Below are positions 2,218 to 28,209 of a DNA stretch of 56,677 bases, piece by piece (positions within the stretch are counted from its first letter, which is position 1; each line of letters starts with the position of its first letter). A program made the position numbers and the translations under genes. The stretch comes from Anaerolineales bacterium. Its GTDB lineage: Bacteria; Chloroflexota; Anaerolineae; Anaerolineales; UBA11858. The notes under the pieces were generated by a model. That model saw nothing but the letters and a program-made list of their open reading frames with translations, searched no databases and was not told where the DNA came from. The stretch covers positions 1 through 56,677 of the forward strand of contig JADHXE010000002.1 in assembly GCA_016783125.1 (NCBI GenBank), written 5' to 3'.

Positions 2218-2846
2218 GCGAATTGGATTTTTATTTAAAGGTTCTAAAGGCGCTTGATCAAATAGATGCTCCTTACATGATAGTTGGTGCATTTGCGGGC
2301 TATGCATTTGGTCTTACTCGTGTTACTTTGGATATTGACATTCTTGTTGAATTAAGAGAAGAGCATTATGATGTGCTCGCCGAATTATTCCCCTTACCGC
2401 GCTACTATGCGGACCCTGGGATGATGCGTAATTCTACTCAAATGGGCATTATGTTCAATTTGATCGATACAGAAGAAGGGGTAAAGGCTGATTTAGTTCC
2501 CCTCACGAGGGAACCAGAATATCGTATTGCCTTCAACCGGAGGATTCGTCGAATATTCAAAGATGCTTCTGGTGATACCTTCGAGGCAATGTGCGCTCAA
2601 CCAACTGACATCATTATTGGAAAACTCAAAGCTTGGACTGAGGGGCAGTCGAACAAACATCCACAGGATATTTTTAAACTCGTAGTGTTTTATCTAAGTG
2701 GTTTGAGTGATATACCAATTGACATTGACAATGTCACATCTGAGGCTAAAAAAATGGGAGAATCTGCTGCGACACTTTGGCGAGATATTGTTACCCGTGC
2801 TAAAAGAGAGGTCATGCAGCATGAGGAGGAAGCGAAGAATGGCTGA
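2214..2846 (+). CDS. Nucleotidyltransferase-fold protein (Pol-beta/MNT-like superfamily)
   Basis: N-terminal motif IVGAFAGYAFGLTRVTLDIDILV (G-A/S...D-x-D signature of minimal nucleotidyltransferases); lower GC than its neighbours by eye. Confidence 0.6.
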   Translation: MSELDFYLKVLKALDQIDAPYMIVGAFAGYAFGLTRVTLDIDILVELREEHYDVLAELFPLPRYYADPGMMRNSTQMGIMFNLIDTEEGVKADLVPLTREPEYRIAFNRRIRRIFKDASGDTFEAMCAQPTDIIIGKLKAWTEGQSNKHPQDIFKLVVFYLSGLSDIPIDIDNVTSEAKKMGESAATLWRDIVTRAKREVMQHEEEAKNG

Positions 2847-4662
2847 AAAATCCATTGCTGAACGAACTCAAGAATTAGTCAACGTCGCCATGGGGCGCGA
2901 CCCAGCTGATATGGTCATCCAGAACGGACAATGGGTCAGCGTTCAATCCGGCGAAATCATTCCTGACACGGATATTGCCATCAAAGATCAGCGCATTGCC
3001 TATGTTGGCCCTGATGCATCTCATACAATTGGTGACAACACAAAGGTTATCGATGCCGATGGGCGCTATCTCGTCCCTGGGTTATTAGATGCGCATATGC
3101 ATGTTGAGTCTGGCATGGTCACTGTGACGGAGTTTGTGCGGGCTGTGGCCCGGCGCGGCACTACGGGGATGTTCATCGACCCCCATGAACTCGCTAATGT
3201 TTTGGGGCTGAAGGCCGTCAAGTTGATGGTGGATGAAGCCGCCGAGCAGCCCATCCATGTTTGGGTGCAAATGCCTGCGTGTGCGCCTTCTTCTCCAGGC
3301 TTGGAAACCCCCGGTTCCAGCATTAGCGTTGAGAATGTGGCTGAGGCGATGGGATGGGATGGCATTATTGGCCTAGGCGAGATGATGAATTTTCCTGATG
3401 TGATCAACAGCGGCGAAAAAATGCACGCTGAGATGGCTGAGACGCGTGCGGTTGGGAAAGTCATCGGTGGGCATTATGCTTCGCCAGATTTGGGTCTGCC
3501 TTTCCACGGCTATGTGGCTGGCGGCCCCGAAGATGAACACGAAGGCACCCGTAAGGAAGACGCCATCGCCCGCGCACGCCAGGGTATGAAAGTCATGATG
3601 CGATTTGGTTCTGCCTGGCATGATGTTGCCGCCCAGGTGCGGGCTGTCATTGATGATGGGCTTGACCCTCGACATTTCCTCCTTTGCACAGATGATTCTC
3701 ACTCCCAAACGCTGGTCGCGGATGGGCATATGGATCGGGTAGTACGTCACGCAATCGAGCAAGGGCTTGAGCCTATTACCGCTATCCAGATGGCGACCTT
3801 GAATACGTCAGAACACTTTGGGTTGACGCGCGAAATAGGTATGATTGCCCCCGGGCGTTATGCTGATATTTTATTGGTCAGGAACCTCTCTGAATTCCAG
3901 GCCGAGAAAGTCATTGCCAAAGGGCAGGTCATCGCTGAAGGTGGCGAATTGCTGATTGAACTGCCTTCCTTCAAATATCCAGAATGGGCAACCACGTCGG
4001 TGCATCTGGGAAAAGAATTGACTGCCGACGATTTCAAACTTCCTGTCTTCGGTCATCCATCTTCTGTCGTTGCAAACGTCATCGGTGTGATCGAGAACCA
4101 GGCCCCAACCAATCATCTGCGCATAGAGGTGCAGGCCAAAGATGGCGAAGTTGTTTTACCCCCCCTCTGTCCCCCCCGCTTGCGGGGGGGAAGTGAAGGG
4201 GGGGTAGCCAAGATCGCCTTGGTGGAGCGGCACAAGGGCACAGGTGATGTGATCGTGGGCCTGGTGCACGGCTTTGGATTTTCGGAACGCTGCGCGATTG
4301 GTACAACCGTGGCTCATGACAGCCATCACATGATCGTCGTAGGAACAAGCGAAGTCGACATGGCGAGAGCGGCAAACCTGTTAGGGGAGATCCAAGGCGG
4401 CCAGGTGGTCATCAAGGATGGTCAGGTGATTGGCCAGGTCGAGTTGCCCATCGCCGGCTTGATGTCTGATGAGCGCGCTGAAGTTGTTGCTGAGAAAGCC
4501 GCAACTGTGCTGGAAGGTTTCAAGGCTTGCGGCTGCCTGCTCAATAATCCCAATATGCAGCTCAGCTTGTTGGCCCTGGTAGTGATCCCGGAGCTGCGGA
4601 TTTCCGACCTGGGTCTGGTCGATGTAACCAAATTCGAGTTTATACCAGTATTGGAAGAGTAA
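2839..4662 (+). CDS. ade: Adenine deaminase (paralog 1)
   Basis: LVPGLLDAHMHVES metal site, GEMMNFPDV, C-terminal VAHDSHHMIVVG...LPIAGLMS domain. ATG at 2839 chosen because the 2707 extension in the ORF track overlaps the previous gene. Confidence 0.85.
   Translation: MAEKSIAERTQELVNVAMGRDPADMVIQNGQWVSVQSGEIIPDTDIAIKDQRIAYVGPDASHTIGDNTKVIDADGRYLVPGLLDAHMHVESGMVTVTEFVRAVARRGTTGMFIDPHELANVLGLKAVKLMVDEAAEQPIHVWVQMPACAPSSPGLETPGSSISVENVAEAMGWDGIIGLGEMMNFPDVINSGEKMHAEMAETRAVGKVIGGHYASPDLGLPFHGYVAGGPEDEHEGTRKEDAIARARQGMKVMMRFGSAWHDVAAQVRAVIDDGLDPRHFLLCTDDSHSQTLVADGHMDRVVRHAIEQGLEPITAIQMATLNTSEHFGLTREIGMIAPGRYADILLVRNLSEFQAEKVIAKGQVIAEGGELLIELPSFKYPEWATTSVHLGKELTADDFKLPVFGHPSSVVANVIGVIENQAPTNHLRIEVQAKDGEVVLPPLCPPRLRGGSEGGVAKIALVERHKGTGDVIVGLVHGFGFSERCAIGTTVAHDSHHMIVVGTSEVDMARAANLLGEIQGGQVVIKDGQVIGQVELPIAGLMSDERAEVVAEKAATVLEGFKACGCLLNNPNMQLSLLALVVIPELRISDLGLVDVTKFEFIPVLEE
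4157..4206. repeat. GC-rich palindrome inserted in frame inside ade paralog 1
   Basis: ta-C7-tctgt-C7-gcttgc-G7-aagtgaa-G7-ta; encodes LPPLCPPRLRGGSEGGV, where paralog 2 has a shorter unrelated segment. Confidence 0.8.
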
Positions 4663-4689
4663 CAACCTGTGCTGTAATGTACTGATCCG

Positions 4690-5406
4690 ATGACTGATTT
4701 TAGCCGTTCTGAACAACTGCATAACCAACTTGAGGCGATTATCTCCCTGGCCGACGCAGGCCAACGCTTGCCCTCGGAGCCGCGTTTAGCTGAACAATTA
4801 GGTGTATCGCGCGCCACATTGCGCGAAGCCATGCGCACCTTCGAAACGCAGGGCCTGCTCCGCCGCCGTCAGGGCGTGGGGACTTTTGTCGTCCGTCCAA
4901 CTCAGGTGATCGATAGCGGCCTGGAAGTTCTTGAGAGTATCGAAAGCCTGTCTGACAGGATTGGGCTGCCGGTGGCAATGGGCGATTTCCAACTGGTTGA
5001 TTGTGAAGCGGATGAGGTTGTTGCGGAGAAGTTGAAAGTGGAGCCAGGCTCGAAAGTGCAGCGCATCTCGCGTGTCATTATGGCCGATGACCGTCCGGTC
5101 GCCTTTTTAGTTGATACCCTTCGTCTAGGTTTGCTTGTCTCCGAGGAGGTCGGAGATGAGTTTACAGGCTCAGTTTTAGATATTCTGCTAAATCGCGGCG
5201 ATCCCGTCCTGGGGCACTCGCGCTGTGAGATCAATGCTGTTGCCGCCGCCTCTGATGTGGCCCGCGCCCTGGATATCCAACGCGGTGATTCGGTGCTGCG
5301 TTTTGTGTCGCTGCTTTTTAGTAAAGATGGCGAGCCGGTTGATTATTCGTTCAGTTATTTCTTGCCCGGTTATTTCCGGTTTCATGTCGTCAGGAGAGTA
5401 GGTTGA
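4690..5406 (+). CDS. GntR-family transcriptional regulator, HutC/UTRA subfamily
   Basis: N-terminal wHTH LPSEPRLAEQLGVSRATLREAMRTFETQGLLRRRQGVGTFV; about 160-aa UTRA-like C-terminal domain. Confidence 0.85.
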   Translation: MTDFSRSEQLHNQLEAIISLADAGQRLPSEPRLAEQLGVSRATLREAMRTFETQGLLRRRQGVGTFVVRPTQVIDSGLEVLESIESLSDRIGLPVAMGDFQLVDCEADEVVAEKLKVEPGSKVQRISRVIMADDRPVAFLVDTLRLGLLVSEEVGDEFTGSVLDILLNRGDPVLGHSRCEINAVAAASDVARALDIQRGDSVLRFVSLLFSKDGEPVDYSFSYFLPGYFRFHVVRRVG

Positions 5407-5424
5407 CGTTCAGGTGTTACGAAA

Positions 5425-5458
5425 TACGCAATACGGATTACGTTTCACGTATTGCGTA
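5425..5458. repeat. Stem-loop between the gntR-like gene and the first carbamoyltransferase gene
   Basis: tacgcaatacg (5425-5435) pairs perfectly with cgtattgcgta (5448-5458), 12-nt loop; embedded in 8-nt-period low-complexity sequence; no T-run. Confidence 0.6.
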
Positions 5459-5504
5459 AACTGATTACCAATACTAAATTATCATATTTTAAGGAGTAAA
5501 TAAA

Positions 5505-6458
5505 ATGCGTAGTTTTGCAGGTCGTGACATTCTTTCTTTGAAAGACTTTGAGCGTAATGAGTTCTTCCGTGTCTTCGAAATTGCTGAAGAGTTGGAACCT
5601 ATCGCTCGCAATCGCCGCAACACTGATCTTCTGAAAGAGAAGACTCTGGTGACGGCGTTCTATCAACCCAGCACTCGCACCCGTCTGGCACATGAGGCAG
5701 CTATGATCCGTCTTGGCGGCCAGGTGACCGGCTTCGCTGATGCAAAGATGACCCGTGCTGGCGATTTCTACCAAGAGTCCATCAAAGACACCGTCAAAAT
5801 GTTGGAGTTCTATGGTGATGTGATCGTTATGCGGCACTTCCAACAGGGCGCGCCTCACGAAGCTGCCAAATGGGCTTCGGTGCCGATCATTAATGGCGGT
5901 GATGGTTGGGGCGAACACCCCACCCAGATACTGACCGACTTCTACACGGTGATGCGCGAAAAAGGCCGCCTCGATGGCCTCAAGTGGCTGGCTGTCGGCG
6001 ATATGCGCATGCGTACTATGCACTCACTGGCCTATGGTTTGACCCAGTTTGATTGCCCGATCACTTTCGTTTCCCCGGAAGACCAGCGTTTGACGGATGA
6101 AATGAAGGTTGACTTGAAGAATTTCAGCCTTGATTTCAAGGAAGTCGAGCATGTCGAGCAGGCCATCGCGGATGCTGATGTCATCCTGGTCGAGCCGGTT
6201 GTGCAGCCTGATTACACTAAATCCCGTGACGAGCGTGATGGTGATGTCGATCTGACCCCGGCAAACTTCAAGATCACCCGCGATCTGCTTGTCAATAAAG
6301 CCAAATCGGATGCAATCTTGCTGCACTCCCTGCCCCGCATGGACGAGATTCCTCCTGATGTGGACATCACCCGCTGGTCCCGCTACTGGCAAGAAGCCTT
6401 CAATGGCGTTGTCATGCGCATGACGCTGCTGGCGTTGGTTTTGGGGAAGATGGAATAA
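5505..6458 (+). CDS. Aspartate-carbamoyltransferase-like carbamoyltransferase (non-canonical substrate site)
   Basis: STRTR, HPTQ, and ATCase-type C-terminus LHSLPRMDEIPPDVD...LLALVLG. The TRVQKER aspartate-binding segment is replaced by EPVVQPD (alignment by eye); AAGGAG RBS. Confidence 0.7.
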   Translation: MRSFAGRDILSLKDFERNEFFRVFEIAEELEPIARNRRNTDLLKEKTLVTAFYQPSTRTRLAHEAAMIRLGGQVTGFADAKMTRAGDFYQESIKDTVKMLEFYGDVIVMRHFQQGAPHEAAKWASVPIINGGDGWGEHPTQILTDFYTVMREKGRLDGLKWLAVGDMRMRTMHSLAYGLTQFDCPITFVSPEDQRLTDEMKVDLKNFSLDFKEVEHVEQAIADADVILVEPVVQPDYTKSRDERDGDVDLTPANFKITRDLLVNKAKSDAILLHSLPRMDEIPPDVDITRWSRYWQEAFNGVVMRMTLLALVLGKME

Positions 6459-6468
6459 ATCAGGAATC

Positions 6469-6533
6469 AGTAGATTGGTAAATTGGTAACTTGGGAAGAC
6501 CTAATCTACCAATTCCCGATTTGCCAATCTACT
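6469..6533 (+). repeat. Long imperfect hairpin built from the same repeat units that flank the four-helix-bundle gene at 7597-8052 (apparently empty stem)
   Basis: Left arm agtagattggtaaattggtaacttgggaaga pairs with right arm taatctaccaattcccgatttgccaatctact (first 18 positions paired, including 2 G-U). gtagattggtaaattggta (6470-6488) is the exact reverse complement of 8085-8103; cctaatctaccaat occurs at 6500-6513 and 8070-8083. Confidence 0.8.
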
Positions 6534-6552
6534 ATTTTACAGGAGACTAAAA

Positions 6553-7533
6553 ATGCAAAGTGATCTTCGCAATCGTGATTTGATAGGGGATCTCGACTTC
6601 AGCAAAGAAGAAGTCGAAACTATTTTAGACGTGGCCTGGGACCTGAAGCGCAAACGCGCCCTCGGAGAATCCCACGCTTACTTGCGCGATAAAGTGCTGG
6701 CGATGTTGTTCTTCTTCTCCAGCACGCGCACACGCGGTTCTTTCGAGGCGGGTATGGCCCAATTGGGTGGTCATGCTGCTTTTATCGAGAGCCGCACAAC
6801 CCAGATTTCCCACGGCGACACTGAGACAGAAATGGGTGAAATCTTCGGCCGTTATTTCGATGGTATCGCCATCCGCCATGTGGACTGGGGCATTGGTAAT
6901 CGCTATCTCAACCTGGTTGCCAGCGCCTCGCGCGTCCCGGTGCTCAACATGCAGTGCGAAATCTACCATCCGCACCAATGCCTGGCTGACCTGATGACCA
7001 TCATGGAGAAGAAAGGCCGTGATTTACGACGCAAGAAGATGGTCGTATCCTGGGCCTATGCTTCTTCGTACCTGAAACCGATGTCCGTGCCACAGTCGCT
7101 CATTTTACAAATGCCGCGCTTCGGTCTGGACGTGGTTTTGGCACATCCGCCGGAATTCAAGCTGATGCCTGAGATCATGGAACAAGCCGAAGAGCAGGCG
7201 CGTAAAGCCGGCGCAGGTTTCGAAGTCACTGATGATATGGAAGAAGCCTTCAAAGACGCTGACATCATCTACGCAAAGTCCTGGGGCCCCTTGATGACCA
7301 CTCATGATCCCGCAGAAGGCAAGGTTATTCAGGATAAATATCAGAGCTGGATCACCGATCAGCGCAAGATGTCTCTGGCGAAAGAAGACGCCATCTATAT
7401 GCACCCGCTGCCCGCCGACCGTGATGTTGAAGTCACCAGCGAAGTCATGGATGGGCCAAATTCGGTTGTCTTCGATGAGGCCGAAAACCGCATGCATGCT
7501 CAAAAGGCTGTCATGGCGTTGACGATGAGGTAA
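6553..7533 (+). CDS. YgeW-like carbamoyltransferase (OTC/ATC superfamily, catabolic type)
   Basis: SSTRTR, HPHQCLADL, YMHPLPAD, plus segments I recall as YgeW-typical (TQISHGDT; SWAYASSYLKPMSVPQS; EEAFKDADIIYAKSWGP); AGGAG RBS. Confidence 0.7.
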   Translation: MQSDLRNRDLIGDLDFSKEEVETILDVAWDLKRKRALGESHAYLRDKVLAMLFFFSSTRTRGSFEAGMAQLGGHAAFIESRTTQISHGDTETEMGEIFGRYFDGIAIRHVDWGIGNRYLNLVASASRVPVLNMQCEIYHPHQCLADLMTIMEKKGRDLRRKKMVVSWAYASSYLKPMSVPQSLILQMPRFGLDVVLAHPPEFKLMPEIMEQAEEQARKAGAGFEVTDDMEEAFKDADIIYAKSWGPLMTTHDPAEGKVIQDKYQSWITDQRKMSLAKEDAIYMHPLPADRDVEVTSEVMDGPNSVVFDEAENRMHAQKAVMALTMR

Positions 7534-7535
7534 AG

Positions 7536-7591
7536 TTGGGAAACTGGGAAACTGGGAAACTGGTAGATTGGGCATCGGTATTTGGTGGAGG
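7536..7591. repeat. G/T-rich 8-nt-period array forming the left flank of four-helix-bundle cassette 1
   Basis: ttgggaaa ctgggaaa ctgggaaa ctggtaga ttgggcat cggtattt ggtggagg. tggtagattgg (7561-7571) is the exact reverse complement of ccaatctacca at 8079-8089 and 8095-8105. Confidence 0.85.
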
Positions 7592-7596
7592 CAGAT

Positions 7597-8052
7597 GTGA
7601 CAACGAAAGGGCAACGCGGTTTTGAAGATTTGGAATGTTATCAATTGGCATTGCAGGTTTTGAAAGAGGCTTATCGCGTGGCGGATCGTTTGCCTGTTGA
7701 AGAAAAATACAATTTGGCAAACCAAATGCACTGGGCAGCGACCAGTGTGATTTTGAATATCGCAGAAGGGTATGGACGTTTTCACTATTTGGATACTTTG
7801 CGGTTTTATTATATTGCGCGCGGCTCTCTCAATGAAACCTTGAGCGCGTTTATCGTTTGTAAAGAGCTGCAATACACACAAGGCGAAATTCAGCAACAAC
7901 GTGAACTTTGTCACAGCGCGCTGCGTTCGCTAAATGGATATATCCGTTACGTTCGTAAGCAGCAAAAAGGCCACAAAGAATACGGTGACAGCGCAATCCG
8001 AGAAAACCCCGCTCAATACAGTATTGCCACCCAGCCGCTGTTAGATGAATAA
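7597..8052 (+). CDS. Four-helix-bundle protein (23S rRNA intervening-sequence protein / Avd-like family), copy 1
   Basis: FEDLECYQLA...NQMHWAATSVILNIAEGYGRF...IARGSLNETL matches the family pattern. GTG 7597 is preceded by GGAGG; the ORF track starts at TTG 7582. Confidence 0.8.
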   Translation: MTTKGQRGFEDLECYQLALQVLKEAYRVADRLPVEEKYNLANQMHWAATSVILNIAEGYGRFHYLDTLRFYYIARGSLNETLSAFIVCKELQYTQGEIQQQRELCHSALRSLNGYIRYVRKQQKGHKEYGDSAIRENPAQYSIATQPLLDE

Positions 8053-8148: not shown

Positions 8149-9114
8149 ATGACCCAGACTCCCCCAAAAAAACTCGCTGTCGTCGCCATTGGTGGTAACT
8201 CACTAATCAAAGATAAAAAACACAGTACGGTCGAAGACCAATACGAGGCTGCCAAAGAGACAACCTATCATATCGCTGACATGATCGAAGCTGGCTGGGA
8301 TGTTGCCATTGGTCATGGCAATGGTCCCCAGGTTGGCTTTATTTTACGCAGGTCGGAGATTGCGGCCAAAGTTGAAGGGATGCATGAAATCCCCCTGGAA
8401 GTTTGCGGGGCTGATAGCCAGGGCGCGATTGGTTATTCCCTGCAACAGACTTTGCAGAACGAGCTTGCCCGGCGTGGTATCCATAAACCTGTCGCCACCG
8501 TTGTTACCCAGGTGGCGGTAGACTCCAATGATCCCGCTTTTCAGGATCCAGCCAAGCCCATCGGCAGCTTTATGGATGAGAGCGAAGCCTCTACCCGTCA
8601 GGCTGATCTCGGATGGAGCGTGGTGGAAGATGCTGGCCGCGGCTGGCGTCGAGTGGTTCCTTCACCTAAGCCGATAGAAGTCATCGAACTTCCCGCGGTG
8701 AAGGCTCTTCTTCAAGCGGGTACTGCGGTGATCACTGTTGGCGGCGGCGGCATCCCCGTTGTGGATACAGGGGATCGTCAATTCGCCGGGGTTGCTGCTG
8801 TGATCGATAAAGATTTCGCCAGCAGTTTGTTAGCCCGAGAGATCGGCGCTGACCTTCTGCTTATCTCGACTGCTGTTGAGAAGGTAGCTTTGAATTTTGG
8901 TAAGCCCGACGAAAAGTGGATTGATAAAATGACTCTTGCTGAAGCCAAGCAATATCTGGCGGAGGGCACTCACTTTGCCAAAGGGTCCATGGCTCCCAAA
9001 ATCGAAGCCATCATCTGGTTCCTGGAGACTGGCGGTAAGCAGGCGCTGATTACAGACCCTGAAAATATCGGACGCGCTTTGCGCGGCGAAACTGGTACTT
9101 GGATCACGCCCTAG
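8149..9114 (+). CDS. arcC: Carbamate kinase
   Basis: KKLAVVAIGGNSL, GHGNGPQVG, length about 320 aa, AAGGA RBS. Confidence 0.9.
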   Translation: MTQTPPKKLAVVAIGGNSLIKDKKHSTVEDQYEAAKETTYHIADMIEAGWDVAIGHGNGPQVGFILRRSEIAAKVEGMHEIPLEVCGADSQGAIGYSLQQTLQNELARRGIHKPVATVVTQVAVDSNDPAFQDPAKPIGSFMDESEASTRQADLGWSVVEDAGRGWRRVVPSPKPIEVIELPAVKALLQAGTAVITVGGGGIPVVDTGDRQFAGVAAVIDKDFASSLLAREIGADLLLISTAVEKVALNFGKPDEKWIDKMTLAEAKQYLAEGTHFAKGSMAPKIEAIIWFLETGGKQALITDPENIGRALRGETGTWITP

Positions 9115-14549: not shown

Positions 14550-16310
14550 ATGATCCTGACTTTAGATGAACGACGAAAGCTGATCCAAACTGGATTGGGG
14601 GATAGCCCTCTGGATTTGTTGATCGAAAACGTCCAGGTGGTCAATGTATACACGGGGCGCATCGAACTGGGTGCCATCGGCATTGTAGATGGACGCATCG
14701 TGACACCATATGCCCAAGGATACGACACTGAGCGTGTGGTGGATGGTGGCGGCCGTTTTGCCATGCCGGGCTTTTTTGATACCCATGTGCACATTGATTC
14801 GACCTTGGTTGTCCCGGAGAATTTATCTCACCTAATCGTGCCGCACGGCACGACGGTTATGCTGGCTGATCCTATGGAGATTGCCAACGTAGCCGGTTTA
14901 CCGGGTTTCAAGGCGCTGCTCAAAAACATCAACCAGTTACCCTATCACATCTTTTTGGAAGTCTCTTCGCGCGTACCCACCGCTCCCGGCCTGGAAACCA
15001 CTGGCGGCGAGTTGGATTTGCTAGATGTGCGCGAAATCTTGTGCTGGCCGGAGGCTGTCAGCCTGGGCGAGTTGGACCCCTCAAAAGTTTTGGAAATGCG
15101 TGATGAATATCTTTTGAAAGTCGAAGCAGCTCATACCCTTGGGAAGATTTGCAATGGCCACGCGGTTGGTCGCGTTGGAAAAGAACTGGTGGCTTATGCT
15201 TGCGGCGGTTTATCCGACGATCACGAATGCGTAGATTACGCTGAGGCCCTGACTCGTCTGCAACTGGGTATGGCTGTGTTGATCCGCGAGGGCAGCACCG
15301 AACGTAATTTAGACATGATCCTTAAAGGCATGGTCGCAGATGGATTCTACAATTCACCCCATCTCATGTTCTGTACCGACGATAAGCACCCCGATGAAAT
15401 TCTCGATGAGGGGCATATCGATTTTATGGTCAACCGCGCTATTGAGTTAGGTGTTCCTCCGGTCACGGCCATCCAGATGGCAACCATCAACGCTGCCAAG
15501 CATTTCCGCATCGAGCATATCGTAGGCAGCCTTTCCCCGGCGCGCTGGGCGGATATCATCCTGGCTGAGGATCTCGAGCACATCGTCCCGGGTGATGTTT
15601 ATGTCCGAGGTCAGCATATTGCCAGCGACGGCAAATTGATCGTCACGCTACCTGAGTCAGATTACCCGGATTGGCTTTATCAAACGGTGGATGTCACGCG
15701 CGGCAAACAGGCGAGTGATTTTGTGCTTGAGGTAAAAAGGGATAGCGCCAAGGTCTGGGTGATCGACCTTTACCCTGATCAGATCATTAATGAACAGATT
15801 CAGGCCGAACTACAGGTTGTCAATGGTTCTGTAATGTCAGATGTCTCGCGGGATATCATCAAGCTGGCTGTTGTCGAGCGGTATGGCAAGAATGGCAATA
15901 TCGGCATCACCTTTGTGCGCAGATTTGGCTTACAAAATGGTGCCCTGGCTTCGTCAGTTGCCCATGATCACCACAACATCATCGTTGCAGGTACCAATGA
16001 TGCTGATATGGCAGCCTGTGTACAGGCCATCGAAGAGATGCAAGGGGGATTAGCAATTGCCTCGGGTGGAGAAGTGTTAGGAAAACTCCCATTGCCCATC
16101 GGTGGCTTGATGAGCGAAGAACCCGTTGGCGAAATCATCCAAAATCTAGAAGAGATCAATAATATTTATAAATCTTTAGGCGGCACGCTGCCAGCGCCCT
16201 TCATGACGATTTCGTTCATTGGGTTGCCCACTGTCCCTCAGCTTGGTCTCACGGATATGGGATTGGTGGATGTGCTCGAACATATTCTGATTAGCCCCCT
16301 TGTAGATTGA
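14550..16310 (+). CDS. Adenine-deaminase-family amidohydrolase (paralog 2)
   Basis: FFDTHVHIDS metal site; C-terminal VAHDHHNIIVAG...LPIGGLMS domain collinear with paralog 1. Confidence 0.75.
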   Translation: MILTLDERRKLIQTGLGDSPLDLLIENVQVVNVYTGRIELGAIGIVDGRIVTPYAQGYDTERVVDGGGRFAMPGFFDTHVHIDSTLVVPENLSHLIVPHGTTVMLADPMEIANVAGLPGFKALLKNINQLPYHIFLEVSSRVPTAPGLETTGGELDLLDVREILCWPEAVSLGELDPSKVLEMRDEYLLKVEAAHTLGKICNGHAVGRVGKELVAYACGGLSDDHECVDYAEALTRLQLGMAVLIREGSTERNLDMILKGMVADGFYNSPHLMFCTDDKHPDEILDEGHIDFMVNRAIELGVPPVTAIQMATINAAKHFRIEHIVGSLSPARWADIILAEDLEHIVPGDVYVRGQHIASDGKLIVTLPESDYPDWLYQTVDVTRGKQASDFVLEVKRDSAKVWVIDLYPDQIINEQIQAELQVVNGSVMSDVSRDIIKLAVVERYGKNGNIGITFVRRFGLQNGALASSVAHDHHNIIVAGTNDADMAACVQAIEEMQGGLAIASGGEVLGKLPLPIGGLMSEEPVGEIIQNLEEINNIYKSLGGTLPAPFMTISFIGLPTVPQLGLTDMGLVDVLEHILISPLVD

Positions 16311-17801: not shown

Positions 17802-17804
17802 GCC

Positions 17805-20070: not shown

Positions 20071-21333
20071 ATGAGTAAATTTATTGGTTATCGATGTTCC
20101 GTATGCGAAACAGAATACGGGACTGATGAAGTAACATATACATGCCCGAAAGATGGCGGAAACCTTGATGTAATCTTGGATTATGAGGCTATCAAAAAAT
20201 TATCTGTGGATGATCTGATCTTGAAGGATGAGCCATCTCTGTGGCGTTACCTGCCCCTATTACCTGTCCCTGACCCCGGTGGAAAAGCGACCACCCTTCG
20301 GGCTGCTGGCTGGACCCCTGTGTTTTCCCCTGCTCCCCTGGCGGAGAAACTCGGCCTGCGCCATCTCTACATCAAAGATGAGAGCGGCAATCCCACTGCT
20401 TCGTTCAAAGACCGTGCCAGTGCTGTGCTGATGGCCCGCGCCCGCGAAATTGACGCTGAAATCGTAGTGACCGCCTCCACCGGCAATGCTGGAGCAGCTC
20501 TGGCAGGCATGGCCGCGGCCGTAGGACACAAAGCAGTCATCTTTGCCCCTAAGACCGCACCACCCGCCAAAATCGCCCAACTGCAAATCTTCGGCGCCAA
20601 AGTTTTGCTGGTAGATGGCAATTATGACGCCGCCTTCGATCTCTCTGTACAGGCCTCCCAAGAATTTGGCTGGTACTGTCGCAATACGGGCTATAACCCT
20701 TTTACTGCTGAAGGCAAGAAGACCGCCGCGTTTGAGATTTGGGAACAAGTGATTAGAGATCAGATATTAGATATTAGAGATTCAATACCCAATATCCAAT
20801 ACCCTCTATCAATCTTCGTTTCAGTGGGCGACGGCAATATCATTTCAGGTATCCACAAAGGTTTCAAGGACCTGCTCGAACTTGGCCTGATCGAAAGTAT
20901 GCCGCGTATCTTCGGCGTGCAGTCAACCGAGTCCTCTGCGATAGCTAATGCCTTCAATGCTGGCACTGAGGAGATCAAACCTGTCAGCGCCACCACCCGC
21001 GCCGACAGCATCTCTGTGGATATGCCCCGAGATGGCCTGCGCGCCTTGCGAGCTGCCACCCAAACCGGCGGGGCTTATATAACCGTCCCCGATGATGAGA
21101 TCATTGCTGCTATCGCTGAGCTGGGCAAAGTTGGTATCTTTGCCGAACCGGCTGGCGCAACCTCCTACGCCGGATTAGTCAAAGCAGTCAACGATGGCTT
21201 GATCGGTCCGGATGATCCCGTGGTTGTGATGAACACTGGCAGCGGACTCAAAGATGTCAAAGCCGCCATGCAGGCTGCGGGCGAAGCCCCAATCATCGAG
21301 CCAACTCTGGAGGCCGTAAGGCGCTTGTTGTAA
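20071..21333 (+). CDS. Threonine-synthase-family PLP enzyme with N-terminal zinc ribbon
   Basis: CSVC...CPKDGG ribbon and PTASFKDRAS lysine motif; starts 13 nt after the molybdoenzyme gene, so probably co-transcribed. Confidence 0.7.
   Translation: MSKFIGYRCSVCETEYGTDEVTYTCPKDGGNLDVILDYEAIKKLSVDDLILKDEPSLWRYLPLLPVPDPGGKATTLRAAGWTPVFSPAPLAEKLGLRHLYIKDESGNPTASFKDRASAVLMARAREIDAEIVVTASTGNAGAALAGMAAAVGHKAVIFAPKTAPPAKIAQLQIFGAKVLLVDGNYDAAFDLSVQASQEFGWYCRNTGYNPFTAEGKKTAAFEIWEQVIRDQILDIRDSIPNIQYPLSIFVSVGDGNIISGIHKGFKDLLELGLIESMPRIFGVQSTESSAIANAFNAGTEEIKPVSATTRADSISVDMPRDGLRALRAATQTGGAYITVPDDEIIAAIAELGKVGIFAEPAGATSYAGLVKAVNDGLIGPDDPVVVMNTGSGLKDVKAAMQAAGEAPIIEPTLEAVRRLL
20751..20814. repeat. AT-rich low-complexity quasi-palindrome inserted in frame in the ThrC-like gene
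   Basis: gattagagatcagatattagatattagagatt / caatacccaatatccaataccctctatcaatc. Encodes IRDQILDIRDSIPNIQY between the conserved EQ and the PxxxxVxVGxGN segments, where canonical threonine synthases have about 4-5 residues. Confidence 0.65.
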
Positions 21334-22851: not shown

Positions 22852-23790
22852 ATGATGACGCCAGCTTATACAATTATTGCTCCCATATTTAACGAAGTTG
22901 AGAATATTCCCGAGTTGTACCGGCGCATATGTGAAGTGATGGATAACGCCGATAAGCCCTGGGAATTAGTGATGGTCGATGATGGCTCCACGGATGGCTC
23001 CGCTGATCTGATCCGAGAGTTGGCTGCTGCCGATCAGCGCGTGCGGCCGGTGATCTTCGCCCGCAATTTTGGACACCAGATCGCGGTCACCGCCGGTTTG
23101 GATTACAGCCGCGGCGAAGCCGTTGTGATCATCGATGCTGATTTACAAGATCCCCCCGAAGTGATCCTGGAGATGATCGCCAAATGGCGTCAGGGATATG
23201 AAGTCGTTTATGCAGTTCGTTCCGAGCGGGAGGGGGAGACCTGGTTCAAGGAGTTCACCGCTTCCCTGTTTTATCGCCTGATCTATCGCATCACCGATGT
23301 GGATATCCCGCTCGATACCGGCGATTTCCGCCTCTTGGATCGCAAGGTGGTCGATGTGATGGGCCAGATGCGCGAACGGCATCGTTTCTTGCGAGGCATG
23401 TCCGTTTGGGTGGGATTCAAGCAGACTGGTGTGGAGTACAAACGCGCTGCCCGTTTTGCCGGTGAAACCAAATACCCCTTAAAGAAAATGCTCAAGTTCG
23501 CCACCGATGCTATCACCAGCTTTTCATATTTCCCATTGCAGATGGCCATGTATTTGGGCTTTATTTCTGCGGGGATAAGCATCCTTGTTATCCCTGTGGT
23601 TATCGCCATGCGCCTGGCAGGTTCACAGGCTTTCTTTGGGCAGGCTTCAACATTGATCGCGGTCCTCTTCCTGGGGGGAGTCCAGTTAATATCCCTGGGC
23701 ATCCTGGGTGAATATGTTGGCCGTCTGTACGACGAGGCCAAAGGGCGGCCGCTCTATATCGTTAGCGAAGCGCCCTCCGGTGACAATTGA
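22852..23790 (+). CDS. GT2 polyprenyl-phosphate glycosyltransferase (GtrB/ArnC/DPM1-like)
   Basis: VMVDDGSTDGS, DADLQDPPE, two C-terminal transmembrane helices. Confidence 0.85.
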   Translation: MMTPAYTIIAPIFNEVENIPELYRRICEVMDNADKPWELVMVDDGSTDGSADLIRELAAADQRVRPVIFARNFGHQIAVTAGLDYSRGEAVVIIDADLQDPPEVILEMIAKWRQGYEVVYAVRSEREGETWFKEFTASLFYRLIYRITDVDIPLDTGDFRLLDRKVVDVMGQMRERHRFLRGMSVWVGFKQTGVEYKRAARFAGETKYPLKKMLKFATDAITSFSYFPLQMAMYLGFISAGISILVIPVVIAMRLAGSQAFFGQASTLIAVLFLGGVQLISLGILGEYVGRLYDEAKGRPLYIVSEAPSGDN

Positions 23791-24123: not shown

Positions 24124-25590
24124 ATGTACACGATTGATTTGACTGTTTTGGAAGACCGTCTTGCGCGATCTGTAGAGCGTGCTCGAGATCGGGATATTAT
24201 CATCCCAACCTTTGCGCAGATGAAAGATCCGGCGTTGATCCCGGATAAGTTCAAAGAAGAACTGGCTTCGATAGGCCTTTGGGATGTGCATCCCCGTAAC
24301 TTATTTCGCATCACCTGGCATAACGAACCGAAGGCCAGCGGCGGCGGATTCGGGGATGTGAATTATTTGGAGCTGCCCTCCAGCCTGACGGGTGTGCCTG
24401 CCCGAATCATTGTTCTGGTTGGCAAGTGGTTCCCCACTGGATCCCATAAGGTGGGTGCCGCCTTCGGGTGTCTCGCACCACGCCTGGTTACAGGTCAGTT
24501 CGACCCCACCACCCAAAAGGCAGTCTGGCCTTCCACGGGTAATTATTGCCGCGGTGGAGCCTACGACTCGGCCCTATTAGCCTGTGAGTCCATTGCTATC
24601 CTCCCCGAAGAGATGAGCCAGGAGCGTTTTGATTGGTTGGCCAATATTGCAGGTGAAACCATCAAAACTCCCGGAAGCGAATCCAATGTAAAAGAGATTT
24701 TCGATAAATGCTGGGAACTGCGCGCCACCGGTGAAGATCTGATGATCTTCAACCAGTTCGAGGAGTTCGGCAACTATCTATGGCATTATGAGATTACTGG
24801 TCATGCCATGGAAGAAGTGCTAAAGGAAGTTCTGGGGCCGAGAGACAAATACCGCGGTCTGGCCTCGGCCACCGGCTCAGCAGGGACGATTGCCAGTGGG
24901 GATTATTTGAAACAGATCTTCCCAGGCAGCAAAGTCATCGCCAGCGAAGCGCTTCAATGTCCCACGCTGCTCGAGAATGGCTACGGCGCTCACCGAATCG
25001 AGGGTATCGGCGATAAGCACGTGCCCTGGATACACAACTCCAAGAATACCGATATGCTGGTTGCCATTGACGATAATGCAGTTATCAACCTTGCTCGCTT
25101 GTTCAATGAGCCTGTAGGTCGTGAATACCTGGTCAAACAGGGCGTGCCCGAAGGTATTGTAAGCCAACTTGACTTGCTTGGTTTCTCTGGTATCTCTAAT
25201 GTGCTTTCGGCGATCAAAGCTGCCAAGTACTACGAAATGGGCGAAGAGGATATTATGCTCACGGTATTGACCGACTCGATGGATCTCTACCAGAGCCGTC
25301 TGACAGAAATGCATGATGAGTACGGCGAATATTCGGAGATCGATGCCGCCGCTGATTTTGCCCGTTGGCTGCAAGGCGAGTCAACCGATAACCTGCTCGA
25401 ACTGCGCTATGAAGACCGCCGCCGCGTGCATCAACTCAAGTACTTCACCTGGGTCGAGCAGCAGGGCCGCACCTATGATGAGATCCAGGAGCAGTGGTAC
25501 GGACGCGATTACTGGACCGACTTCCAGAAGCAGGTCCCAGAGATGGATGAACTGATCGAGAAATTCAACGAGAAGGTTGGCTTGATCTAG
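24124..25590 (+). CDS. Long fold-type-II (Trp-synthase-beta-like) PLP-dependent enzyme, function unknown
   Basis: Lysine motif KWFPTGSHKVGAA, STGNYCRGGAY, later glycine-rich SATGSAGT; 488 aa with N- and C-terminal extensions; GGAGAG RBS. Confidence 0.55.
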   Translation: MYTIDLTVLEDRLARSVERARDRDIIIPTFAQMKDPALIPDKFKEELASIGLWDVHPRNLFRITWHNEPKASGGGFGDVNYLELPSSLTGVPARIIVLVGKWFPTGSHKVGAAFGCLAPRLVTGQFDPTTQKAVWPSTGNYCRGGAYDSALLACESIAILPEEMSQERFDWLANIAGETIKTPGSESNVKEIFDKCWELRATGEDLMIFNQFEEFGNYLWHYEITGHAMEEVLKEVLGPRDKYRGLASATGSAGTIASGDYLKQIFPGSKVIASEALQCPTLLENGYGAHRIEGIGDKHVPWIHNSKNTDMLVAIDDNAVINLARLFNEPVGREYLVKQGVPEGIVSQLDLLGFSGISNVLSAIKAAKYYEMGEEDIMLTVLTDSMDLYQSRLTEMHDEYGEYSEIDAAADFARWLQGESTDNLLELRYEDRRRVHQLKYFTWVEQQGRTYDEIQEQWYGRDYWTDFQKQVPEMDELIEKFNEKVGLI

Positions 25591-25679: not shown

Positions 25680-26339
25680 ATGCACTTACCGGATCCGACT
25701 TCCTTGATTTTGGTCACGTTCATCCCCTCTCAGCGTGACCTGGAGATGGCGCGTGTTTTGGGGTGGTACCGCATTCCGCTAGCCACCGCGCCCAAAGTTG
25801 TGGCTGTGGATTACCTGGCTTTTTACCAACCGGCTTCTTTTGGTGAGCATAAATGGTGTATTGAATATGTTGCGCCTGTGCGCGGTCATGAGCTGACTAC
25901 AAGAGCTGAATTGTTGCGTGACGAATCTGATCATCCTAGAGCTGGTGAGGAGTACTTCAAGATTCAGCTTGACCCACTGATTGCACTCCCGCAACCCATA
26001 AAGGCTGAACGCTGGAAGCGAGTCACGTTTCTCTATACAACCGGGGAATACCTGCTTCGAGCAGAAACGATCAACGATCTGGTCGTTCACTCTGAAGAGC
26101 GCAAGCTGCTCTGGCGTGCCCTGCGTGAGCGCGTGAACCAGGAGCAGACGTATGAAGTGCCGGATGTTGATATGCCGCCTGAGGTGTTAGCGATGTTGTT
26201 GGGGATAAAGGAGCTTGGGGAGGGGTATGGGGCAAAGGAGCCAGAAGAGCCAGATGTGACAGAAGAACCAGATGTACCAAATGAACCAGAAGAGCCAGAA
26301 AAACCAGATGAGCCAGAACCGGGCAATATTTTGATGTGA
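25680..26339 (+). CDS. Conserved-looking hypothetical protein with a repeat-encoded acidic EP-rich tail
   Basis: Body has motifs LGWYRIPL, YLAFYQ, HPRAGEEYFKIQL. The last roughly 34 aa (EPEEPDVTEEPDVPNEPEEPEKPDEPEPG) are encoded by the 9-nt array at 26238-26318. Confidence 0.55.
   Translation: MHLPDPTSLILVTFIPSQRDLEMARVLGWYRIPLATAPKVVAVDYLAFYQPASFGEHKWCIEYVAPVRGHELTTRAELLRDESDHPRAGEEYFKIQLDPLIALPQPIKAERWKRVTFLYTTGEYLLRAETINDLVVHSEERKLLWRALRERVNQEQTYEVPDVDMPPEVLAMLLGIKELGEGYGAKEPEEPDVTEEPDVPNEPEEPEKPDEPEPGNILM
26238..26318. repeat. 9-nt-period array (9 units) forming the left flank of four-helix-bundle cassette 2
   Basis: gagccagaa gagccagat gtgacagaa gaaccagat gtaccaaat gaaccagaa gagccagaa aaaccagat gagccagaa. 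Confidence 0.85.
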
Positions 26340-26352: not shown

Positions 26353-26727
26353 ATGAAGGATCGTGGCGATAAAGGATTTCGTAAGCTGAATGTTTGGAAA
26401 CGTGCTCACGAGTTGACTTTGCTGGTTTATAAGCATTCGGAGAGTATCCCTAAACGTGAGATGTTTGGATTGACTTCTCAAATTCGCCGTGCATCTGCAT
26501 CTGTTCCGGCAAACATTGCTGAAGGTTATGCTCTTGGAAGCAGTGCTCAATTTTTGCGTCATCTGCGTATTGCCCAAGGTTCTCTGGCTGAAGAAGAATA
26601 CTTTCTGATCTTGGCTTTTGATCTGGATTATCTTTCTCAGGATGAATATGATGAGGCCGAATCTCTACGTGCTGAAGTTGGCTTCTTGCTCTCTCGTCTG
26701 ATTAAATCCGTGGAAAATAAGAAGTAG
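26353..26727 (+). CDS. Four-helix-bundle protein (23S rRNA intervening-sequence protein / Avd-like family), copy 2
   Basis: KLNVWKRAHELTLLVYK...TSQIRRASASVPANIAEGY...IAQGSLAEEEY; same family pattern as 7597-8052. Confidence 0.8.
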   Translation: MKDRGDKGFRKLNVWKRAHELTLLVYKHSESIPKREMFGLTSQIRRASASVPANIAEGYALGSSAQFLRHLRIAQGSLAEEEYFLILAFDLDYLSQDEYDEAESLRAEVGFLLSRLIKSVENKK

Positions 26728-26772
26728 CTTTTGGCTCCTCTGGTTCCTTTGATCCCTATGATCCCTTATATC
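26728..26772. repeat. Complementary 9-nt-period array forming the right flank of cassette 2
   Basis: cttttggct cctctggtt cctttgatc cctatgatc ccttatatc. The reverse complement of 26728-26746 (gaaccagaggagccaaaag) matches gaaccagaagagccagaaa at 26283-26301 at 16/19. Confidence 0.8.
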
Positions 26773-26787
26773 ATTTTGGAGTAAACC

Positions 26788-28209
26788 ATGTCAACAACAA
26801 CCCTCATAAAATCCGGAACCCTGATTACTGCCTCCGAAACCTTCACCGCTGATATTCTTGTTCAAGGGGAGAAGATCGCCGCTATTGGTCAAGAGTTGGA
26901 TGTTCAAGATGCAGAGATCATCGATGCTTCCGGCAAGTTGATCATGCCTGGCGGCATTGACCCTCACGTCCACCTGGCTTTACCGATGTTCGATACGATC
27001 TCATCCGATGATCACTATACCGGTCACAAGGCCGCCGCTTTTGGGGGAACAACAACCGCGCTGGATTTCGTTGTGCAGGAGCCGCAAGGCTTTGCTCATT
27101 CGGTGGATATTTGGCGGCGTAAGGCTGAGATAGCCGCCATAGACTACGGCTTTCATATGAACCTGACTCACTTTGATGAACAGGTAGGACGCGAAATTCC
27201 CTCTCTTGTGGAGATGGGGATCACTACGTTGAAGGTCTTTACCGCCTACAATGGTCGCTTGCGCCTGCCGGATGGCGACATCTTTCAGGCGATGCGCATA
27301 GCCAAAGATCATGGCATGTTGACCATGCTGCACGCCGAAAATGGGGATGTGATCGATGTGCTGGTTGAAGAAACCCTGGCCGCAGGGCACACTACTCCAG
27401 AATGGCACGCCCGCACAAGACCTGCCTGGGGAGCGGTAGAGGCTGCTTTACGCGGTTTCGCCCTCGCTGCGGAGACGGGCGCGCCGTTATACCTTGTCCA
27501 TATGAACGTGGCTGGCGAAGTGGATATGCTGCATTACGCCCGCCAACGCGGCATCAAGGTGATGGGGGAAACCTGCTCTCAATACCTGTTCTTCACTGAA
27601 GATCATCTGCGCCGCGCAGATGGCGCCAAGTGGATCTGTTCCCCGCCAATGCGCACCGAGGCTGATAATGCCCGGCTGTGGGATGGCATTGCGGATGGTA
27701 CGATCCAGGTGATGGGCACGGATCACTGTCCGTTCTTCTTCGACGGCACGAAACCAATTCTTTATGAAGAGGAGGAAATCGCCATCCCTGGTAAGGAGCT
27801 TGGCGCTCAGGATTTCACTAAAATTCCCAATGGTTTGCCAGGTATCCAGGATCGTATGCCAATCTTGTGGACTGAAGGTGTCGTCAAGGGGCGCATTACC
27901 CCGAATCAATTCGTAGCTATGATGAGCACGAACCCAGCCAAGATATTTGGGCTATATCCCCGAAAGGGCGCGCTCCTCCCAGGTTCTGATGCTGATATTG
28001 TCATCTGGGATCCCGAACGGGTTGTAGACTATGGGGTAGCGATGTCTCATCAGCGCACGGATTACAGTCTGTATGAGGGCTGGGAGTTGAAGGGGTATCC
28101 TGAGAAGGTTTATTTACGCGGAGAATTGATCATCGATGGGGAAGAATGGCTTGGCGCGCCGGGTAAGGGGATGTATTTGCACCGAACCCCGAATGCCGAA
28201 ATTCTGTAG
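26788..28209 (+). CDS. Dihydropyrimidinase / D-hydantoinase-type cyclic amidohydrolase
   Basis: GGIDPHVHL, LHAENGD, GTDHCPF motifs; 473 aa. Confidence 0.85.
   Translation: MSTTTLIKSGTLITASETFTADILVQGEKIAAIGQELDVQDAEIIDASGKLIMPGGIDPHVHLALPMFDTISSDDHYTGHKAAAFGGTTTALDFVVQEPQGFAHSVDIWRRKAEIAAIDYGFHMNLTHFDEQVGREIPSLVEMGITTLKVFTAYNGRLRLPDGDIFQAMRIAKDHGMLTMLHAENGDVIDVLVEETLAAGHTTPEWHARTRPAWGAVEAALRGFALAAETGAPLYLVHMNVAGEVDMLHYARQRGIKVMGETCSQYLFFTEDHLRRADGAKWICSPPMRTEADNARLWDGIADGTIQVMGTDHCPFFFDGTKPILYEEEEIAIPGKELGAQDFTKIPNGLPGIQDRMPILWTEGVVKGRITPNQFVAMMSTNPAKIFGLYPRKGALLPGSDADIVIWDPERVVDYGVAMSHQRTDYSLYEGWELKGYPEKVYLRGELIIDGEEWLGAPGKGMYLHRTPNAEIL

Follow-up and report, generated by a model that had tools for sequence, protein, structure and literature searches.

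A carbamoyltransferase paired with a carbamate kinase phosphorolyses a ureido group to carbamoyl phosphate, which is then used for substrate-level phosphorylation. The same energy logic is seen in the arginine deiminase module with its catabolic ornithine carbamoyltransferase (cOTC), the agmatine deiminase module with putrescine carbamoyltransferase (PTC), and the oxalurate module with oxamate carbamoyltransferase. In E. coli and Clostridium, YgeW and YqeA make ATP from 2,3-diureidopropanoate (bioRxiv 10.1101/2025.04.24.650524 and 10.1101/2025.05.19.654654). According to these two preprints the order of the enzymes in the reductive urate pathway is XdhD, YgfK, SsnA, HyuA, YgeW/YqeA, YgeY and YgeX, and the intermediates are ureidomethylhydantoin, 2,3-diureidopropionate and 2,3-diaminopropionate, which is turned into pyruvate. 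In the same two preprints this anaerobic pathway was reconstituted in 2025, only in gut Proteobacteria and Firmicutes, and they differ on which ureido groups are cleaved by YgeW and YgeY. Here we describe a gene array in a window of 56.7 kb (the whole stretch of DNA that was analysed, 56,677 nucleotides of contig JADHXE010000002.1 from an uncultured Anaerolineales bacterium of marine or estuarine metagenomes) with two carbamoyltransferases, named CT1 and CT2, and one carbamate kinase. It is fairly probable that the array is a purine-catabolic cluster and that its core is the Chloroflexota counterpart of the lower part of the reductive (2,8-dioxopurine) urate pathway, with both ureido groups being phosphorolysed.

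The open reading frames (ORFs) form an unbroken series on the plus strand from about 2.8 to 28.2 kb of the window. Their families were called by profile searches with NCBIfam, TIGRFAM and Pfam, where bit scores are quoted against the curated cut-offs, and E. coli K-12 proteins (YqeA, HyuA, YgeW, ArgI, PyrB, XdhA, XdhD and YgeX) are the reference for the identity figures. The series includes a GntR/HutC regulator with a UTRA effector domain (4690..5406; HutC/PhnF-type matches in NCBIfam, GntR and UTRA in Pfam), CT1 (5505..6458), CT2 (6553..7533), the carbamate kinase (8149..9114), two fold-type-II pyridoxal phosphate (PLP) enzymes, one of them ThrC-like (20071..21333) and the other, PLP488, of 488 aa (24124..25590), and a HyuA-like D-hydantoinase/dihydropyrimidinase (26788..28209). 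The profile searches recovered every gene class named in an original prediction, made earlier from the sequence, as an intact plus-strand ORF, and agree with its two Ade-like amidohydrolases, BMP-type importer and three-subunit enzyme of the xanthine dehydrogenase (XDH) family. Not on its gene list were an AI-2E transporter, a GT2 glycosyltransferase, an unknown ORF of 219 aa and a pair of four-helix-bundle ORFs.

The array resembles the E. coli ygeW region in having a HyuA-type hydantoinase, a YqeA-type kinase, a YgeW-related carbamoyltransferase, a fold-type-II PLP enzyme, an XDH and purine deaminases nearby. It differs in that the ATCase-derived CT1 (from aspartate carbamoyltransferase, ATCase) is added and that the ThrC-like enzyme and PLP488, which is similar to cystathionine beta-synthase (CBS) and O-acetylserine sulfhydrylase (OASS), stand in place of YgeX. 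Furthermore, the regulator is of the HutC/GntR type, as compared to the sigma-54 type YgeV, and a Bmp ABC importer is found instead of the NCS2 permeases. The variants of C. difficile and Clostridium sporogenes (UacX, UacY; DOPDH) also show that the pathway is modular across phyla, as the ureido groups can be cleaved and the ring reduced by alternative enzymes. In C. difficile, however, a hydrolase replaces YgeW and YqeA and the ATP is lost, whereas the Anaerolineae arrangement gains a carbamoyltransferase. The cOTC, PTC and oxamate carbamoyltransferase modules differ from it as well, since here there is no deiminase, there are two carbamoyltransferases per operon, and no OTC (ornithine carbamoyltransferase) or PTC cut-off or motif is matched.

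CT1 is an ATCase-family carbamoyltransferase in which the site for the second substrate is altered. It clears TIGR00670 by 10 bits (246.5 vs 236.95), stays under the cut-off of NF002032 (216.6 vs 263), and has an identity of 35.5% to PyrB of E. coli. Fold, length and the H(P/S)LPR motif are the same as in PyrB of E. coli and Pyrococcus abyssi (1ML4, E 1e-67), and the carbamoyl-phosphate site is intact (STRTR, R105, H134, and Q137 in HPTQ) and invariant in the orthologues. From the aspartate-binding set K84, R167, R229 and Q231, only R167, for the alpha-carboxylate, is retained. K84 in the 80s loop has become Tyr (GDFYQES in place of xKGES), and EPVVQPDY..KSRDER replaces TR(I/V)QKER, the R229/Q231 motif, which the five characterised ATCases of the alignment (from E. 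coli, Pyrococcus, Methanocaldococcus, Arabidopsis and human) carry. These replacements (Y84 and EPVVQPDY..KSRDER) are invariant or nearly so across 69 orthologues. Since the loss of the aspartate residues is conserved to this extent, CT1 is not a canonical PyrB, and its sequence predicts a paralogue that is derived from ATCase but unable to bind aspartate in the usual manner. Contrary to PyrB, it also has no PyrI or pyr genes in its neighbourhood.

CT2 is the protein in the window that is nearest to YgeW, with an identity of 34% (e-58) as compared to 30% to ArgI, and it is 70 residues shorter than YgeW. We describe it as a YgeW/AOTC-like ('KSW') carbamoyltransferase, AOTC being N-acetylornithine carbamoyltransferase, and it is under every family cut-off, including those of the YgeW profiles (TIGR03316, 186 vs 500; NF005538, 194 vs 453). 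In a neighbour-joining tree of carbamoyltransferases, which is rough and without support values, it is placed beside YgeW, with the YgeY-linked enzymes of two other loci (L088 and L090, described below), and apart from the OTC clade with SMG and HCLP motifs. Its nearest full-length relatives, taken as one per 50% cluster, also score higher to YgeW than to ArgI. CT2 is outside the canonical OTC clade: it scores 248 against TIGR00658 (cut-off 281), KSWGP replaces the DxxxSMG ornithine loop, and HPLPA replaces HCLPA. It is also under the AOTC cut-off (NF003384, 254.6 vs 288), and the extended 80s-loop insertion of AOTC is lacking. The likeness to the Xanthomonas AOTC (3KZC), in the knotted group of YgeW, AOTC and N-succinylornithine carbamoyltransferase, lies in (Y)AKSWG, the VDW segment and the Glu at the position of E92; the differences are a Glu at the position of the essential K302, HPLP instead of HCLP, and the catabolic gene context. 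One distant relative of CT2 (P0136, 41%) has an unrelated gene context, and the contigs of P0135 and P0137 are too short to inform.

Whether the two enzymes belong with the canonical PyrB and ArgF was a check set beforehand, and by their motifs, cut-offs and the rough tree both appear to fall outside these anabolic clades. This bears on the idea that the genes form an anabolic module, in which CT1 would be PyrB, CT2 would carbamoylate ornithine or acetylornithine, and the carbamate kinase would synthesise carbamoyl phosphate as in Pyrococcus, while the ThrC-like enzyme and PLP488 would be housekeeping threonine and cysteine synthases that are near by synteny. The closest solved structures to the carbamoyltransferases are indeed the Pyrococcus ATCase and OTCase, TIGR00670 and, in the case of the ThrC-like enzyme, TIGR00260 are cleared by a few bits, CT2 has the Glu equivalent to E92 of AOTC, and PLP488 stands alone in some genomes. 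In addition, CT1 and CT2 are 72–96% identical across orders, which is above FolD. We nevertheless regard the anabolic module as very improbable. CT1 is without K84, R229 and Q231, the aspartate binders in all the characterised ATCases aligned, and in CT2 neither the SMG loop nor HCLP nor K302 of AOTC is present, and its scores are under all cut-offs. The regulator is of the HutC type and is accompanied by an importer, the flanks are catabolic (deaminases, YgeY, SsnA, XDH) and not pyr or arg, and the carbamate kinase (TIGR00746, 380 vs 358) is 53% identical to the catabolic YqeA. The original prediction that a carbamoyltransferase and a carbamate kinase here yield ATP is supported by the gene identities, the similarity to YgeW and YqeA, and the catabolic neighbours, as far as sequence comparison can tell.

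The organisation was compared in related genomes. When GTDB species were scanned, with one genome for each, at least 525 genomes had a close relative of CT2, and the best 80 of these (CT2 83–95% identical) were compared with 10-kb flanks, the loci being numbered with an L. A core order recurs in all 80 genomes, which is more than chance, and GntR-CT1-CT2-carbamate kinase is kept in 65–80 of them. Conservation of the neighbourhood in relatives had been set as a check on the original prediction, and it is seen here. CT1 is present in 69–70 loci, the carbamate kinase is directly 3' of CT2 in 73, and GntR is directly 5' of CT1 in 65. The ThrC-like gene is found in 41 loci, the Bmp transporter in 40–45, and PLP488 next to the core in 24, a count that is limited by the length of the flanks; the D-hydantoinase lies further downstream, mostly past the 10-kb flank, and follows 3' of PLP488 in L013, L056 and L068. 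Upstream of GntR an Ade1 orthologue is seen in about 40 loci, usually after an 8-oxoguanine deaminase, and FolD is upstream in 11. With the optional members in brackets, the consensus is (FolD), 8-oxoguanine deaminase, Ade1, GntR, (YgeY), CT1, CT2, carbamate kinase, and then a downstream module of (Bmp ABC), (Ade2 and XDH), ThrC-like, (GT2), PLP488, unknown and hydantoinase.

The conserved core therefore consists of the GntR/HutC regulator, CT1, CT2, the carbamate kinase, the ThrC-like enzyme and PLP488. As close orthologues of Ade2 and the XDH occur in only a few loci, the region is best described as this core with lineage-specific inserts. The original prediction of a 25-kb 'supercluster' thus holds for the core, but the stretch as a whole is a mosaic, and Ade2 with the XDH is an accessory insert found in few relatives. 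In the deep-branching loci L063, L064, L076–L078 and L082 the genes GntR-CT1-CT2-carbamate kinase-ThrC-like-PLP488 are contiguous, even though the ThrC-like protein is only about 50% identical, which argues for a functional linkage rather than an inherited synteny. A protein identical to CT2 was found on metagenome contigs, and near-identical DNA in marine, estuarine and aquatic metagenomes. Homologues of CT2 at 88–97% identity were in all cases from metagenome-assembled genomes of Anaerolineae/Chloroflexota. It was also observed that CT1 and CT2 are more conserved than every neighbour across L006–L085, with the carbamate kinase and Ade1 both at 69%. One possibility is that this conservation comes from a constrained multi-enzyme complex in which carbamoyl phosphate is channelled.

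The genes found beside the operon in relatives link it to the 2,8-dioxopurine pathway. A tblastn search of the 56.7-kb window gave no YgeY/M20 peptidase, SsnA, YgfK, 8-oxoguanine deaminase or close YgeX homologue; the absence of an M20 peptidase and a diaminopropionate ammonia-lyase had been pointed out before. Clustering of those ORFs in the 80 loci to which no window gene corresponds gave two recurrent families. An 8-oxoguanine deaminase (NF006055, 687 vs 532) is present in 38 of the loci, and YgeY (TIGR03526, 452 vs 321.5) is located between GntR and CT1 in nine. In L078, SsnA (NF005540, 515 vs 444) and an Fe-S protein resembling reductive dehalogenases are immediately upstream of GntR-CT1-CT2-carbamate kinase-ThrC-like-PLP488. 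This Fe-S protein, of 399 aa (6887–8086 in L078, between SsnA and GntR), is a possible alternative reductase. Downstream of the operon, L064 and L082 carry a selenium-dependent XDH (TIGR03311, 933 vs 830) together with NpdG, an NADPH-dependent F420 reductase (211 vs 150). The same association is seen outside this group: the distant and independent L088 has XDH, a PLP488-like protein (57%), YgeY (52% to E. coli), a CT2-like protein (54%) and carbamate kinase in a row, and L090, from an independent lineage, has YgeY, a CT2-like (44%) and a ThrC-like protein (37%).

SsnA is widespread in Anaerolineae, at loci apart from the operon, where its neighbours include an XdhD-like selenium-dependent XDH (L096) or an 8-oxoguanine-deaminase homologue and a luciferase-like oxidoreductase (L094). 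One of the 2025 preprints notes that SsnA clusters of Chloroflexota carry a luciferase-family F420 enzyme in place of YgfK, and such a reductase fits the NpdG and luciferase-like neighbours seen in the relatives. A further candidate for an alternative reductase, of 454 aa and FAD-oxidoreductase-like, is located between the 8-oxoguanine deaminase and GntR in L013 (5528–6892) and also in L027 and L035; Ade1 is missing there. With YgeY, SsnA, the selenium-dependent XDH and the 8-oxoguanine deaminase beside the operon in relatives, the original view of a ygeW-type purine/ureide cluster with a different composition is supported.

The placement of YgeY bears on the role of CT1. In the outgroups YgeY is directly before CT2, in nine Anaerolineae loci it occurs with CT1, and most loci have CT1 only. 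This is consistent with CT1 having taken over the hydrolytic step of YgeY. As both co-occur in the nine loci, CT1 is not a simple replacement.

It is conceivable that CT1, CT2 and the carbamate kinase harvest ATP from other ureides, such as allantoin, allantoate or oxalurate, N-carbamoyl-beta-alanine or N-carbamoyl-aspartate from pyrimidines, or imported N-carbamoyl amino acids, and that the purine genes are mere neighbours or feeders. The hydantoinase family acts on dihydropyrimidines and on many hydantoins too, the window is without a dearomatising reductase and SsnA, Ade2 and the XDH are accessory, CT1 is derived from an ATCase, and the specificity of Bmp transporters is not limited to purine bases. 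We consider this unlikely, because the genes next to the operon in the relatives (8-oxoguanine deaminase, YgeY, SsnA and selenium-dependent XDH) specifically mark the 2,8-dioxopurine pathway, and neither in the window nor among the recurrent families of the 80 loci did we find an allantoate amidohydrolase, ureidoglycolate dehydrogenase or dihydropyrimidine dehydrogenase. The hydantoinase itself shares 38% identity with HyuA over 469 aa, clears TIGR02033 (510 vs 393), and scores 510 bits with the D-hydantoinase profile as compared to 248 with that of allantoinase; and CT1 is without the residues needed for N-carbamoyl-aspartate.

The last step of the 2,8-dioxopurine pathway requires a look at the PLP enzymes. 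Fold type II PLP enzymes, YgeX among them, catalyse beta-elimination or beta-replacement on 3-substituted alanines. Judged by their sequences, neither of the two enzymes in the window is a YgeX-type diaminopropionate ammonia-lyase. The ThrC-like enzyme has an N-terminal Cys4 zinc ribbon, clears TIGR00260 narrowly (174 vs 167), and is under the cut-off of NF006050 (252 vs 303). The PLP lysine motif NPTASFKDR is present, and the closest solved relatives are threonine synthases. In the loci examined it is, however, found in the context of the carbamoyltransferase operon or YgeY, not of hom/thrB. It is also the best match to YgeX in the window (27% over 173 aa; NF006058, 55 vs 276), and is a candidate for the YgeX-type step. 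Inside its gene there are heptamer tandem repeats at 20751–20804 (GATTAGA x4.6 and CAATACC x3.1), and they encode a surface loop (about aa 227–245) of hypervariable length among Anaerolineales orthologues that is missing in the deep-branching ones.

PLP488 is extended at both termini and gives weak PALP/CysK matches; its lysine motif is PTGSHK, and the similarity to CysK and CBS is distant. An AlphaFold2 (AF2) model (pLDDT 66) matches CBS/OASS folds in a generic manner and gives no clue to the substrate. Thus, of the two PLP enzymes in the original prediction, the ThrC-family assignment stands, but both the profiles and the AF2 model indicate that the 488-aa enzyme is CBS/OASS-like and not TrpB-like. 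Its assignment to the pathway is weaker than that of the ThrC-like enzyme, because some genomes also have it outside the operon. The 219-aa ORF (25680–26339) lies between PLP488 and the hydantoinase; it matched nothing in Pfam, NCBIfam or PHROG, and its single-sequence AF2 model is unusable (pLDDT 36). It is kept at this position in L013, L027, L056 and L068.

The identities of the genes, their conserved linkage and the altered site of CT1 are seen in the sequences; the substrates and the order of the steps in the putative pathway, as we infer them, would be the following. Purine bases or nucleosides would enter by the Bmp importer, and Ade1 and Ade2 would deaminate adenine-type bases, while the 8-oxoguanine deaminase of the relatives would act on 8-oxoguanine. 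XDH-family enzymes may then adjust the oxidation pattern. A reductase and SsnA, presumably encoded elsewhere as in related Anaerolineae, would dearomatise the purine and then open its pyrimidine ring, and the hydantoinase would convert 5-ureidomethylhydantoin or 5-ureidodihydrouracil to 2,3-diureidopropionate. The 3-ureido group would be phosphorolysed by CT2, being of the omega-ureido type like YgeW in the scheme of Liu et al., and the 2-ureido group by CT1, as an alpha-N-carbamoyl type enzyme whose beta-carboxylate pocket may have been rebuilt so as to accept a side chain of the amino- or ureido-methyl kind. From each carbamoyl phosphate the carbamate kinase would make ATP, giving up to two per purine as compared to one in E. 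coli, in which one of the ureido groups is lost to hydrolysis by YgeY. Finally, one or both of the PLP enzymes would convert 2,3-diaminopropionate to pyruvate and ammonia.

Several observations weigh against this scheme. Neither tblastn nor the ORF families gave SsnA, a candidate dearomatising reductase, YgeY or YgeX in the window, and its XDH is a three-subunit enzyme of the XdhA-like kind, not the fused XdhD or selenium-dependent type that makes 2,8-dioxopurine. CT1 and YgeY occur together in the nine loci mentioned, and the median identity of CT1 and CT2 across the 80 loci is 84–85% as compared to 65% for FolD, which is unusual for catabolic enzymes. PLP488 lies away from the operon in some genomes, there are two PLP enzymes although one would do, and the scheme does not account for the conserved GT2 glycosyltransferase inside the array. 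One small metatranscriptome matched CT2, but the stretch 2800–21400 got three short contigs, which say nothing on co-expression.

The XdhA-like XDH and the two purine deaminases, together with available ring-opening amidohydrolases, could also suit an oxidative/hydrolytic purine fermentation of the Clostridium type. In that case xanthine would be degraded by way of 4-ureido-5-imidazolecarboxylate and 4-aminoimidazole to formiminoglycine, with a carbamoyltransferase, in place of a hydrolase, phosphorolysing the 4-ureido group, and the rebuilt pocket of CT1 might in principle take a ureido-imidazole carboxylate. FolD upstream in the 11 related loci would fit as well. We regard this, too, as very improbable: neither the window nor the set of recurrent neighbours gave genes for formiminotransferase, cyclodeaminase, decarboxylase or glycine reductase, and two carbamoyltransferases, two fold-type-II PLP enzymes and the neighbours YgeY and SsnA would be left without a role.

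If we return to the 2,8-dioxopurine scheme, it is possible, rather than probable, that CT1 represents a new specificity derived from ATCase, towards 2-ureido-3-aminopropionate or 2,3-diureidopropionate, and that together with CT2 and the carbamate kinase both ureido groups are turned into ATP and the yield is doubled. Literature searches gave the two 2025 preprints and later reviews, and no account of a variant with two carbamoyltransferases from Chloroflexota or Anaerolineae. If the proposal is true, nucleobase fermentation would be core energy metabolism of abundant Anaerolineae of sediments and digesters, since the operon occurs in hundreds of species and CT1 and CT2 are conserved beyond a housekeeping gene. 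The presence of two adjacent carbamoyltransferases, one of the alpha-N-type and one of the omega-type, could then also help to settle the dispute on the ureido group of YgeW. The results suggest that environmental Chloroflexota have a purine pathway that is built differently, with an extra carbamoyltransferase and PLP enzymes other than YgeX, and with an energy yield that is possibly twofold. Moreover, they give testable substrates for three widespread orphan families (CT1, CT2 and PLP488), and a possible explanation to how the poorly cultivated Anaerolineae gain ATP from the necromass of nucleic acids.

The genes of the entry module are more variable. Ade1 (2839..4662, 607 aa) and Ade2 (14550..16310) both clear TIGR01178 narrowly (484 and 489 vs 472.5) and are predicted adenine deaminases of the same amidohydrolase family, with the HxH metal motifs DAHMH and DTHVH. 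The two paralogues are 33% identical. Orthologues of Ade2 (at least 50% identity) were found in six of the 80 loci, usually with the XDH, and close orthologues of the XDH of the window in only a few. The importer is of the Bmp/PnrA type and consists of a binding protein (9251–10510; Pfam Bmp, 128 bits), an ATPase (10750–12306) and two permeases (12308–13441 and 13444–14418), the latter three identified by NCBIfam matches. In the XDH-family enzyme, assigned by the family profiles, the FAD subunit (16456–17325), the 2Fe-2S subunit (17322–17801) and the Mo subunit (17805–20057) are all under the equivalog cut-offs (pucD 563 vs 784, XdhA 475 vs 780, XdhB 211 vs 310, XdhC 172.5 vs 217). For the Mo subunit the identity is 32% to XdhA and 27% to XdhD, and when its active site was compared with those of these two E. 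coli enzymes, substrates could not be told apart.

It is doubtful that the AI-2E and GT2 genes belong to the pathway. The first encodes an AI-2E-family transporter (21635–22735; Pfam AI-2E, 161 bits) and the second a GT2 polyprenyl-phosphate glycosyltransferase-like protein (22852–23790; PgfS/ArnC-like matches). The GT2 gene, with C-terminal transmembrane helices, is found between ThrC-like and PLP488 in 19–22 Anaerolineales loci, and is missing in the deep-branching ones.

The block from 2.8 to 28.2 kb is made up of several co-directional units and is not one operon, as it is interrupted by strong hairpins with A/T tracts and by two long gaps, 300 nt 5' of the AI-2E gene and 333 nt 5' of PLP488. 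Two of the hairpins have perfect 25-bp stems with A and T tracts (16331–16384, -57 kcal/mol, and 22755–22810, -51.5 kcal/mol; z about -11), and the hairpin at 14449–14507 is a variant of these. Ade2 is bracketed by strong hairpins, and another two strong hairpins are located 3' of the gene for the importer binding protein. Members of this long-hairpin family, with A-/T-tract arms (CCGAAAAAGGGTGTGCGTGGGG..CCCCACGCACACCCTTTTTCGG) and -39 to -57 kcal/mol, were also seen at 35503–35573 and about 45886–45907. The family marks the borders of modules that vary between relatives (Ade2, XDH, AI-2E), and its members look like bidirectional terminators or REP-like (repetitive extragenic palindromic) elements. 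A generic scan for promoters and terminators gave counts that were not above those of shuffled sequences, and it missed the long hairpins. A 10-bp inverted repeat between gntR and CT1 (5426–5457), which is enriched within the window, was considered as an operator for the regulator and rejected: 68 of 69 relatives do not have it upstream of CT1, and it folds as a hairpin. For the same reasons it is likely to be a terminator or a stem-loop.

Two small ORFs in the array (7597..8052, TIGR02436 90 bits, and 26353–26727) encode four-helix bundles similar to the 23S rRNA intervening sequence (IVS) proteins or to Avd of diversity-generating retroelements (DGR). The intergenic site that they occupy varies in the relatives, between CT1 and CT2 or between CT2 and the carbamate kinase, like that of a mobile element, and the ORF at 7597–8052 is probably outside the pathway. 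Tandem arrays of octamers flank the two ORFs, at 6470–6494, 7537–7563, 8073–8114 and 26746–26766.

Both ends of the array border on small gene pairs. Upstream, at 1960–2846, an ORF of 85 aa is followed by one of 210 aa with a minimal nucleotidyltransferase-like motif, G-x10-D-x-D, whose stop overlaps the start of Ade1. The pair sits where most relatives have the 8-oxoguanine deaminase, and it could be toxin-antitoxin-like. Directly 3' of the hydantoinase there is a Phd-family antitoxin with a PIN-domain toxin (28271–29002). Further into the window, at 35664–43036, a hybrid histidine kinase of 2092 aa, which combines TPR and GAF domains with many PAS domains, precedes an HD-domain response regulator. 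On the minus strand FeoB is split (46309–48563) into a G domain (48563–48057) and a membrane part (48060–46309) that overlap by 4 nt, and a regulator in which DtxR and FeoA are fused is encoded nearby (50586–51317).

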